The translations under genes were made by a program, and so were the position numbers. Below, in pieces: positions 56,711-59,413 of a stretch of DNA of 64,000 nucleotides (the first letter of the stretch is position 1; each line of letters begins with the position of its first letter). Below the pieces are notes generated by a model that was given only the letters and a program-made list of their open reading frames with translations, searched no databases and was not told the DNA's origin. This stretch comes from Escherichia phage REP8, in the sequence record OQ174507.1. One strand, 5' to 3'.

Positions 56711-56775
56711 ACTAATCAACGGGGAGGTAATAGCCTCCCTACTAAGTAAAGTCCTTAAACTAGGAGATTCAAAAA

Positions 56776-57024
56776 ATGGCAACTATCCGCGCAACTGTCA
56801 ATGCTTATGGCTGTTATACTCTGGACGTTAAATTTGATATTGGTGGGACTGATGAATGTTTTTCCTTAGTGAAAACAGTTATCAAGCAAGTTATCCCAGA
56901 ATATAACCCTGCTGATGACTTCTGGAAAGATGCCGTAAAAGAGGCCATAAACGATGAGCACCACTATCATTACTGGGGTGATTTGATTGTCTCCCTGTAC
57001 TACAATAAACAAGGTTACAACTAA
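56776..57024 (+). CDS. hypothetical early protein
   Basis: ORF after cassette. Confidence 0.35.
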   Translation: MATIRATVNAYGCYTLDVKFDIGGTDECFSLVKTVIKQVIPEYNPADDFWKDAVKEAINDEHHYHYWGDLIVSLYYNKQGYN

Positions 57025-57063
57025 TCGACGCAGCGGGGATAAATAACCCCAGATACCCCTAAA

Positions 57064-57089
57064 AGCACCTATTTAAAGGTGCTTTTTTA
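57064..57089 (+). terminator. intrinsic terminator
   Basis: AGCACCT-loop-AGGTGCT followed by TTTTTT. Confidence 0.55.
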
Positions 57090-57099
57090 CGTCTATTGA

Positions 57100-58780
57100 A
57101 TCCTTATACAATCCCTTTCCCTCACCTTTCCAGAATCTATCCACTGATTCGATAGAACCTATCTCATACCTTAAAAAGCAATAACTCTATAGTCTACTCT
57201 ATAACCTTTTATCAAATCAACTTAAATAAAAGCCAATAACCCCAGAAAGGGGATGGCCTCTTATTGGTATTGTTACCAATCCCTAAAACGCTCTATAAAG
57301 CTCTATAACAGCCTTATCAACCTAACTTAAGGGATTGCATTAACCAACCTTAAAAAGCTCTTTACAAGGCTTTATAGAGGCTTAAAAGAATCTTATAAGG
57401 TTATAAGCTTTATTATCTCGTTAGCTATCTTGTGAACTACTAAAAGTGCTATGAGATAGGAATCTATGAGGGTAATTCATTACCTGAATCACTATCGAAT
57501 CCTATTGTTATTGTCTTAAAAGTATGTTATAGGGTGCTATAAAGTTACTTTGAAGTAGTTTAAAAGTTACGTAAATGCTAGCCACCTTAACATTTTCTTA
57601 ACAATTTCTTAACAATCCCTACATAGTTATGCTTTTAAGGCACTTGTTAGCAACTTGTTAGCACCTTGTTAAATCTCTGTTAAAACCACGTAAAAGCCTT
57701 GTAAGAACCTTTGACATAGCCTTTAAAGCACCTGTAAAGCACTATAAAGAGCTATCCATACAGTTGAGGGGTAAATACTAGGGAGAGCCTTAAAAGAGCC
57801 TATAAAGAGCTATAGAGAGCTTTTAAAAGGTATGTTTAAGAAATCACTAAGAGGGAAAGGGAACGATAAGAAAAGAGGTAGTGACCATGTTAATAGCTTG
57901 TTAAAAAGGTTAAACACTTGTTAGGAACTTGTTAATTATCTAACTGGTATTGTTACCAATCCCTAACAAAATAACCCTTAAAAATTAACCTGTTAGCTCT
58001 TGTTAGTCATCTATTAAGATTCTGTAAAGCCTATTCAGTACTTGTTAAAAGACTGTTACCCTCTTGTTAAAACTGTTAGAAATCTATTAAGACCCTTAAA
58101 GAGATGTTAAAAGGTTGTAAGAACTGTTGAGAGATTGTTAATGATATTTTAAAATTTTGCAAAGGGGATGTTAAGGAGCTGTTAAGGGCTACCAAGCAGA
58201 TATACATCCTCAACAGATATTTTTGAGTTCCTTCAAAGACCCTAAAAAAATGACTTGATAGTCCTATTTTATAAAAATTTTAAAATTCTGAATAATTACC
58301 TATACAGTCTTTCTAAAATACAGGTAGAAACAGGCTTATAAGATACCTTGTTAGTACCGTGTTAGACCTTGTGAGATAAGGTCTGTAAAGATATTCCTGT
58401 TAAGTTTGTTAAAACAGTCTATATAGAGGCTTAGTAATACCTAGTGAACACCTATAGAGGGTATCATAGCTGACATAGAGATTAAGAGGTGTATAGGAGC
58501 TTCTAAGAGGGTATATAGGGATGGTTAAGGTGATTGTATAGGTTGTTAAGAAGACTTGTTAGAGGGCTTGTTAGAGGGCTTGTTAGAAGGATTATACAGA
58601 GGGGCTATTAAGACCACTAGGTAGTTACTAAGATACTATATAGTACTATATAACTATATAGAGAGTAAGATTAAAAAGGTTGTTAAGAAGGATAGATATT
58701 TTGTTCACATATGATGGTGACCCAGAGGTTGGGACAACCGATAAAATTTTATAAAAAATATAAATTTCGTAAATTTTACT
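57100..58780. repeat. ORF-free AT-rich repeat-dense region (candidate origin, packaging or regulatory region)
   Basis: No ORF >=60 aa in any frame; many TTGTTA(A/G) motifs; 13-bp tandem repeat x3 at 58555-58590; identical 22-bp repeat at 57265-57286 and 57945-57966. Confidence 0.5.
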
Positions 58781-58783
58781 CAA

Positions 58784-58808
58784 TAAAAAGCCCCCAATTA
58801 AGGAGGCT
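58784..58808 (-). terminator. intrinsic terminator
   Basis: Minus strand GCCTCC-loop-GGGGGC hairpin followed by TTTTT. Confidence 0.45.
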
Positions 58809-58819
58809 CTTAAGATATT

Positions 58820-59413
58820 TTAAATCAGTGTTTCCAGAACTGTCTTCAGTGATGATTTGGTTGTCTGATAAAAATGAGTAAAGCCATTGTTGTTATCAAA
58901 TACCTGCATCATGATATCATCTCCCTTGATTGGGTACACTCGGATATCATAGTGAAAACCATTAAAGACACAAGAGCCACTACAGAATGCACTAAAGTCA
59001 TTAACTGAGATATACTCTTCATGACCTGTGATTTTTATACAAACACCTTTACTCGGTCTCTTAGGGTTGATATCTTCCATCACAGACATACTCTGTCCAC
59101 CAAGAGATACCATAGCGACCACTTTACGGTTCTTCTGTTTAAAGTACATTTTAACTTTCTGTAAAGTGTCTTCATAGAACGGATAAGACTTCTCTACAAA
59201 GATTCCTTCAAGTGGCTCTTTACCATTTTCAACTTCTCTGTTATGCCGTACTGCAAAGATAATTTGTTCAAACCAGTCAAGATTTTCTTCGGAGAGTGCT
59301 TCCCGAATATCATTCCAGTCAAGGACTAGGTAGTTGCCTTCAACTTCTTTTAAGTTATCTTTTTCCATAGCTATCACACCATTATCGTAAAACTTGGTAG
59401 GCTGGTACTGCAA
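58820..59413 (-). CDS. hypothetical protein
   Basis: ORF only. Confidence 0.3.
   Translation of the reverse strand: MQYQPTKFYDNGVIAMEKDNLKEVEGNYLVLDWNDIREALSEENLDWFEQIIFAVRHNREVENGKEPLEGIFVEKSYPFYEDTLQKVKMYFKQKNRKVVAMVSLGGQSMSVMEDINPKRPSKGVCIKITGHEEYISVNDFSAFCSGSCVFNGFHYDIRVYPIKGDDIMMQVFDNNNGFTHFYQTTKSSLKTVLETLI

Follow-up and report, generated by a model that had tools for sequence, protein, structure and literature searches.

The gene-free stretch at positions 57025–58819 of the analysed DNA of Escherichia phage REP8 (OQ174507.1; the whole 64-kb stretch of DNA is henceforth called the window) is very probably the collapsed chromosome end of a Felix O1-like phage, with a direct terminal repeat (DTR) of about 613 bp. 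The best explanation of the region overall, and a highly probable one, is a concatemer junction of a Felixounavirus with short, exact, and non-permuted direct terminal repeats. The DTR is single-copy here because assembly collapses the two copies present in the virion. The gap, which comprises about 1.8 kb of the window (remainder about 62 kb), is delimited by a coding sequence on the + strand ending at 57024 and a coding sequence on the − strand ending at 58820.

Genome ends and terminal repeat

The genome record of the relative Pr103Blw starts and ends inside this stretch and carries an annotated 581-bp “short direct terminal repeat” at both ends. This annotated DTR aligned end to end with window positions 57581–58193, which is its sole full-length match in the window, and the collapsed Pr103Blw junction was collinear with window positions 56741–59001. 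Exact terminal repeats were present in four records from three countries, i.e., Pr103Blw (USA, 581 bp), Ro111lw (USA, 613 bp), SeKF_63 (Canada, 613 bp), and D4 (Philippines, 581 bp). All four have the same left junction, ...GTTACGTAAATGCTA/GCCCCCTTAACATTTTC... (the slash marks the junction; shorter form ...GTAAATGCTA/GCCCCCTTAACA), with each record beginning with GCCCCCTTAACATTTTC, and the same right junction, ...TGTTAAGGGCTACC/AAGCAGATATAC... (shorter form ...GGGCTACC/AAGCAGATATAC). Both junctions are held unchanged by the window, as TA/GCCNCCTTAACA at 57580/57581 and as GGGCTACC/AAGCAG at 58193/58194. The end positions are thus fixed, with identical junctions in independent isolates and in the window, and they are kept in all aligned relatives. 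The record of pEP20 (Korea) was opened exactly at the right junction, and the start and end of the record of GE_vB_7A (Georgia) fall within a few bases of the junctions. The segment matched 265 places across 242 records, so that about 23 records carry it twice.

The DTRs of Ro111lw (613 bp, PMC6454146), Pr103Blw (581 bp, PMC8303462), and D4 (PMC11737134) were published based on PhageTerm. For UAB_Phi87, two defined fragments were removed from virion DNA by Bal31, and run-off sequencing yielded a DTR of 608 bp (Bardina 2016, PMC4837284); in the same study, the large terminase of UAB_Phi87 and Felix O1 grouped with those of DTR-generating phages. The UAB_Phi87 repeat printed in Figure S1 of that study, from AACATTTTCTTAACAA to GGGCTACCAA, is the same segment as the DTR of the window, except that it begins 8 nt inward of the left junction and extends 2 nt past the right junction. 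The junction-to-junction distance in UAB_Phi87 is 614 bp, and 614 − 8 + 2 = 608. This comparison was performed on the printed supplement sequence, the GenBank version not being opened at the physical ends. The segment equivalent to the DTR measured 567–658 bp among Felixounavirus relatives (loci L001–L041), with differences mainly due to whole-unit repeat changes and small inserts, and exactly 570 bp in Suspvirus SUSP1 and in Mooglevirus Moogle and Sf16.

A cos site with cohesive ends, or the pac site of a headful-packaging phage with permuted ends, is extremely unlikely, although a gene-free and repeat-rich region is of the general kind that holds such sites in other phages. In relatives, the repeats are exact and both ends are fixed, heated restriction digests of UAB_Phi87 were without cohesive ends and Bal31 removed its two defined fragments (PMC4837284), and Ro111lw was assigned by PhageTerm to the short-DTR, T7-like class without permutation (PMC6454146).

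Other records open in or near this region for a different reason. The record of REP10 (OQ174509.1) begins inside the region, with a 77-nt assembler overlap between its two ends, and the records of ekra (MN850644) and dune (MN850636) have their break close to a 12-bp tandem repeat, about 395 bp past the right junction. Because these three records start where they do for assembly reasons, record starts alone were not taken as evidence of termini. The coordinates of all features of the gap are compiled in Table 1.

Table 1. Features of the gene-free gap, with positions in the window
Feature	Positions	Strand	Remarks
Right-end unique non-coding DNA	57025–57580		In Pr103Blw, Ro111lw, SeKF_63, and D4, homologous DNA stands before the DTR copy that closes the record
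Two hairpins followed by a T-run, end of the + strand unit	57035–57090	+	Terminator stem 57061–57086, upstream hairpin 57035–57050
Terminator-like hairpin	57239–57254	−	From scan; z-score −2.2, weak; relatives retain a CCCC/GGGG or CCC/GGG stem
22-bp hairpin element, copy 1	57265–57286	+	Core TTGGTA-TTGT-TACCAA; among 20 aligned relatives filled only in the window and L037
Left junction core TAGCCACCTTAACA	57579–57592	+	PhageTerm-defined left genome end between 57580 and 57581 (TA/GCC)
Direct terminal repeat, 613 bp	57581–58193		DTR of Pr103Blw aligns end to end; junctions common to four records
Three TTAACA hexamers, 11-bp spacing	57586–57616	−	Just inside the left end; only cluster of reverse-oriented copies
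(C)TTGTTAR / TGTTAR arrays in the DTR	57642–58186	+	Mostly 11 bp apart, single orientation
22-bp hairpin element, copy 2	57945–57966	+	Inside the DTR; filled in the window, L018, L038, and Ro111lw, empty in the other 16 aligned relatives
Right junction core TAGCCCTTAACA	58180–58191	−	PhageTerm-defined right genome end between 58193 and 58194 (GGGCTACC/AAGCAG)
Left-end unique non-coding DNA	58194–58819		Reaches from the repeat to the first − strand gene; highest conservation within the gap
12-bp tandem repeat TTGTTAGAGGGC, 3.7 copies	58543–58587	+	Tandem Repeats Finder
Tandem repeat ACTATATAG, about 3 copies	58634–58662	+	Tandem Repeats Finder; exact positions checked
Near-invariant AT-rich block	58744–58797	−	Promoter-like TTTACG, 16 nt, TAAAAT (58773 to 58746); candidate only
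Intrinsic terminator of the − strand unit	58786–58811	−	Stem 58811–58786, z-score −2.6; hairpin kept in other genera

Junction cores and phased motif arrays

The two junctions share a core, TAGCC(N0-3)CTTAACA, which has exactly two matches in the 64 kb of the window versus 0.03 expected by chance. The two copies are inverted, one per junction, and each reads inward. The same inverted pair was found in most relatives spanning both junctions. The right junction, GGGCTACC/AAGCAGATATAC, did not vary in any relative or across the three genera examined, and the left junction was conserved across these genera.

Between and beside the cores, the gap is packed with a short motif. More than 15 copies of TTGTTA(A/G) had been reported in the initial annotation, and the count gave 17 in the gap versus 21 in the other 62 kb (28-fold enrichment); CTTGTTA occurred 13 times in the gap versus five times elsewhere (90-fold enrichment). 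For TGTTA, 31 copies in the gap compare with 3.3 ± 1.8 in dinucleotide-preserving shuffles, and half of the spacings between adjacent copies (15 of 30) were 9–13 bp, with a peak at 11 bp, versus 2.2 ± 1.4 under random placement. The motif is also polarised, with 26 copies of TGTTAR on the + strand of the gap versus four on the − strand. The TGTTA copies are distributed over the DTR (19), the left-end unique DNA (nine, all on the + strand), and the right-end unique DNA (three), the latter having CTNTANAG-type repeats in place of TGTTAR. Three of the four reverse-oriented copies in the stretch are the TTAACA hexamers at the left junction, and from 57645 on all copies have the opposite orientation. 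Among relatives, the 11-bp units vary by whole copies (CTTAACATTTT 2–6, CTTGTTAGNNN 1–5), and the same arrays, with similar motif counts, are present in SUSP1, Moogle, and Sf16. The phasing of the arrays and their strand polarity around two inverted junction cores had been missed initially.

The shorter repeats were located at the same time. TTCTTAACAA occurs twice (57595, 57606), as does CTTGTTAGCA (57643, 57654), and ACTATATA occurs three times (58635, 58645, 58653). All coordinates of the initial annotation were verified except those of a 13-bp unit described as occurring three times, which is a 12-bp unit (TTGTTAGAGGGC) in 3.7 copies, the exact 13-mer being found once. At window positions 57585–57688, the three TTAACA hexamers and the CTTGTTAG repeats that follow them constitute an imperfect long inverted repeat inside the left junction; because it folds about equally on both strands, it is a potential DNA hairpin or cruciform. 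Hairpin ends were once proposed as intermediates of T7 concatemer processing.

Arrays of this form could also suggest that the region is or contains a replication origin, with the TGTTAR motifs as iterons for a phage initiator and the AT-rich segments 58264–58300 and 58744–58780 as unwinding elements. This is unlikely, although about 30 phased direct repeats with copy-number variation, the relatedness of the two AT-rich blocks (a 34-nt direct repeat), and the strong conservation of non-coding DNA outside the DTR would all fit it. No initiator gene was recognised among the six nearest genes, which belong to unknown-function families only, and the GC skew in the window mirrors the direction in which the genes are transcribed, without any origin signal. 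The motifs are moreover concentrated in the DTR and switch polarity exactly at the left junction, and hence recognition of the ends fits them better than an origin. An iteron-type origin is nonetheless compatible with the repeats and the AT-rich blocks, and it is not exclusive of a concatemer junction. According to the passage of PMC13236587 that cites Chung and Hinkle (1990), packaging of plasmids by T7 needs both an origin and the concatemer junction, so that the two functions can, as far as that citation goes, sit close together.

The reading of the region as a concatemer junction with a DTR has to be weighed against several observations. The ends of the window phage were assigned by homology to its relatives, and it is on this basis that virions of the window phage and of REP9 are inferred to end at 57581 and 58193. 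PhageTerm and run-off sequencing place the left end 8 nt apart and the right end 2 nt apart, which makes the exact cut positions uncertain. The PhageTerm cuts show an offset of about 2–4 nt with respect to the core that the junctions share, and a simple symmetric cut therefore fits poorly. At the right junction, the second and third hexamers show lower conservation than their left-junction counterparts. The TGTTAR motifs reach about 500 bp past the DTR into the left-end unique DNA and hence are not simply part of the repeat. Finally, no candidate for a small terminase or binding protein was found among the six flanking genes, for which Pfam and PHROGs returned only families of unknown function.

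Conservation across relatives and genera

The window belongs to a Felixounavirus, and the stretch was 100% identical to Escherichia phages REP9 (compared over 57000–58900) and REP12. In total, 255 phage records matched the stretch, mostly at 80–90% identity and nearly all of them Felixounavirus; in the records of relatives, the stretch is left unannotated, or only terminators and short repeats are marked. In line with the initial annotation, no open reading frame (ORF) of at least 60 amino acids lies within 57100–58780 (the longest overlapping ORFs have 30–56 amino acids), and the gap is AT-rich, with a GC content of 33.1% versus 38.8% in the whole window. Short ORFs annotated here in some records were evaluated for coding potential and rejected as coding, because genera frequently differ by indels whose length is not divisible by three.

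A comparative alignment, which had been suggested as a check of the region, showed the non-coding gap to be as conserved as the flanking genes (19 relatives). Over these relatives, positions 58176–58725 were 92–98% identical to the base of the window, with dips to 82–87% at 58526–58625, and the spots of low conservation in the gap are indels. In Suspvirus SUSP1 and Mooglevirus Moogle and Sf16, a gap of 1.6–1.75 kb lies between the same convergent genes and is collinear over its full length at 71–74% nucleotide identity, with the adjacent protein being 50–56% identical. That the region is functionless, whether as decayed or junk spacer or as an artefact of assembly, is barely credible in light of these data: the absence of genes, the low GC content, and the many simple-looking repeats would agree with it, but its conservation equals or exceeds that of the neighbouring genes (19 relatives, three genera), the same architecture recurs in 255 independent records, and the motifs are far above shuffled expectation.

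One match lies in a record of a different host. Positions 135332–137159 of GenBank GU169904.1 (Staphylococcus phage SA1, 147 kb) are a Felixounavirus terminal region, with 86.8% identity over the full 1.9-kb query, which suggests that this record may be chimeric or contaminated.

Terminators and search for RNA features

The convergent terminators that had been placed at both flanks fold well. For the + strand terminator, the segment 57030–57095 (including the upstream hairpin) folded at −21.7 kcal/mol with a z-score of −4.6, and a compensatory change from GCACC/GGTGC to GCCCC/GGGGC was found in SUSP1, Moogle, and Sf16. Terminators are also annotated on both sides of the gap in the record of Moogle. 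The AT-rich block at 58744–58797, just beyond the − strand terminator, is invariant in three genera, and its promoter-like site points toward the DTR. A promoter scan yielded 12 sites versus 8.2 ± 2.6 in shuffles and was uninformative overall.

Three functions had been considered for the region in the initial annotation; a packaging site or the genome ends was supported, whereas small RNAs gained no positive support, no transfer RNA, Rfam family, or RNA-specific structure being found. ARAGORN predicted 0 transfer RNA genes, and the best match to Rfam had an E-value of 0.37, far below the gathering score. A consensus-fold scan of both strands of a 14-sequence alignment from three genera returned only the terminators and palindromes scoring about alike on both strands, with z-scores being unreliable where the shuffled energies are near zero.

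These results bear on a further explanation, i.e., that the region encodes small or long non-coding RNAs, e.g., a leftward transcript from the promoter-like site at 58773–58746 across the junction to the hairpin at 57254–57239, which would act in regulation or in maturation. This is quite improbable. In its favour, the promoter-like site falls within the cross-genus invariant block, a terminator-like hairpin conserved on the − strand follows 1.5 kb downstream, and there is a precedent in T7, where RNA polymerase pauses at the concatemer junction in maturation (PMC3276506). The transfer RNA and Rfam searches were negative, however, the consensus folds were confined to terminators and strand-symmetric palindromes, the number of promoter-like sites barely exceeds that of shuffles, and no RNA sequencing study of the group was found in the literature. 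Given the promoter-like site in the invariant block and the conserved − strand hairpin, a transcript across the junction is still conceivable.

Palindromic insertions

An identical 22-mer with a TTGGTA/TACCAA palindrome had been noted at 57265 and 57945, and its two copies were confirmed to occur nowhere else in the window. What had not been recognised is that this repeat is an insertion that is present or absent among relatives (Table 1). In UAB_Phi87, the element occupies a third site, close to window position 57984 (supplement sequence). The 22-bp element could be a tiny mobile element or a product of recombination.

Two further palindromic segments were observed in the region. A 24-bp palindromic insert, ATGAGGTAGATTCTACCGAATCAA (GGTAGA-T-TCTACC), is located after window position 58208, 15 nt outside the right DTR junction, in L023, L034, L038, pEP20, and Moogle and is absent from the window. 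A 52-bp segment at 57450–57501 with a GGTAAT-TC-ATTACC palindrome is missing in most Felixounavirus relatives (conservation about 0.38) and occurs at 92% identity, inverted and at a different position, in the gap of Moogle (L040).

Proposed packaging mechanism

The virion chromosome would start at about 57581 and end at about 58193 one genome length later, with 57581–58193 present at both ends, and replicating concatemers would hold the repeat once per junction. The stretch is gene-free because both neighbouring transcription units run toward the ends and stop at terminators. The packaging enzyme would recognise the inverted core TAGCC(N0-3)CTTAACA at each junction and cut or nick opposite strands at the two junctions, and the repeat between these sites would then be duplicated through strand-displacement synthesis, as proposed for T7. 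The one-directional TGTTAR arrays, phased at 11 bp, would put repeated sites on a single face of the helix. Their most likely role would be to load a DNA-binding protein that is oligomeric and marks the junction, in the manner of a small terminase or end-binding factor. A factor of this kind would be needed because no small terminase has been recognised in Felix O1-like phages (PMC3185647). This specific mechanism, i.e., core recognition, strand displacement, and a protein loaded on the arrays, is tentative, its chances being put at somewhat less than even.

A more far-reaching and rather doubtful proposal is that the cores, together with roughly 30 TGTTAR sites, may serve as the recognition platform of an undescribed packaging system in a myovirus subfamily without a recognisable small terminase; some new oligomeric protein would cover the junction and guide both cuts. 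As part of the same proposal, the palindromic inserts of the GGTA..TACC type, which occur at alternative sites only in this region, would be miniature mobile elements targeting the ends of phage chromosomes.

Comparison with known systems

The closest known features are the DTRs of the Felix O1-like phages UAB_Phi87, Ro111lw, Pr103Blw, and D4, which are the same orthologous DNA with identical junctions between the same two convergent genes. The repeat is 581–613 bp long in these relatives and 613 bp in the window; the ends were mapped in the relatives, whereas those of the window are assigned by homology.

The 160-bp repeat of T7 and that of the window are both short, exact, non-permuted, and present once per junction in replicating DNA, and in both phages the stretch is gene-free with packaging signals in its flanks. 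Dunn and Studier are reported to have described, in 1983, arrays of short imperfect repeats, SRL and SRR, on either side of the T7 repeat. The repeat of the window is four times longer than that of T7, however, its motif is a different one, and the two show no sequence similarity. Transcription converges on its ends and stops at terminators, whereas the left end of T7 has strong early promoters, and T7 has gp18, whereas Felix O1-like phages have no recognised small terminase.

In form, the arrays resemble iterons of plasmid origins and centromere-like arrays such as parC of R1, which likewise have motif copies in one orientation at helical-repeat spacing and change by whole units; the resemblance lies in the 11-bp-phased repeats of these systems. 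Unlike these, the array of the window is tied to chromosome ends, and no cognate initiator or partition gene is found among the six nearest genes.

Felix O1-like DTRs of about 600 bp have been known since 2016, with the sequence published, and the core of the finding is an ortholog of a known feature. Published reports on these DTRs give the repeat length only or, in one case, the sequence. In the genome papers of Felix O1 (PMC3185647) and wV8, short terminal repeats were inferred from size only and the genome was opened at rIIA; the region is not described in either. The main text of the PhageMaP paper on the Felixounavirus Bas63 is silent on this intergenic region. The reports examined on Felix O1-like DTRs and genomes contain no description of the inverted junction cores, the conserved flanking DNA (1.1 kb, non-coding), the TGTTAR enrichment with its 11-bp phasing and polarity, the conservation across three genera, or the palindromic indels. 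The phased and polarised arrays, the inverted cores, and the palindromic indels thus appear undescribed so far, and the roles given to them here are inferred.

Significance

As the basic identity of the region was already known, the finding is useful rather than surprising. Most of the 255 related records were opened arbitrarily, with the stretch left blank or filled with spurious small ORFs, and with the two junction sequences, the sequence of any Felix O1-like genome by itself suffices to locate its physical ends. The group is widely used in biocontrol and typing of Salmonella and E. coli. The recognition and duplication of short terminal repeats are understood only for T7-like podoviruses, and a myovirus subfamily without a known small terminase shows a conserved architecture of inverted cores, phased arrays, and conserved flanks, which makes the question experimentally approachable in these phages.

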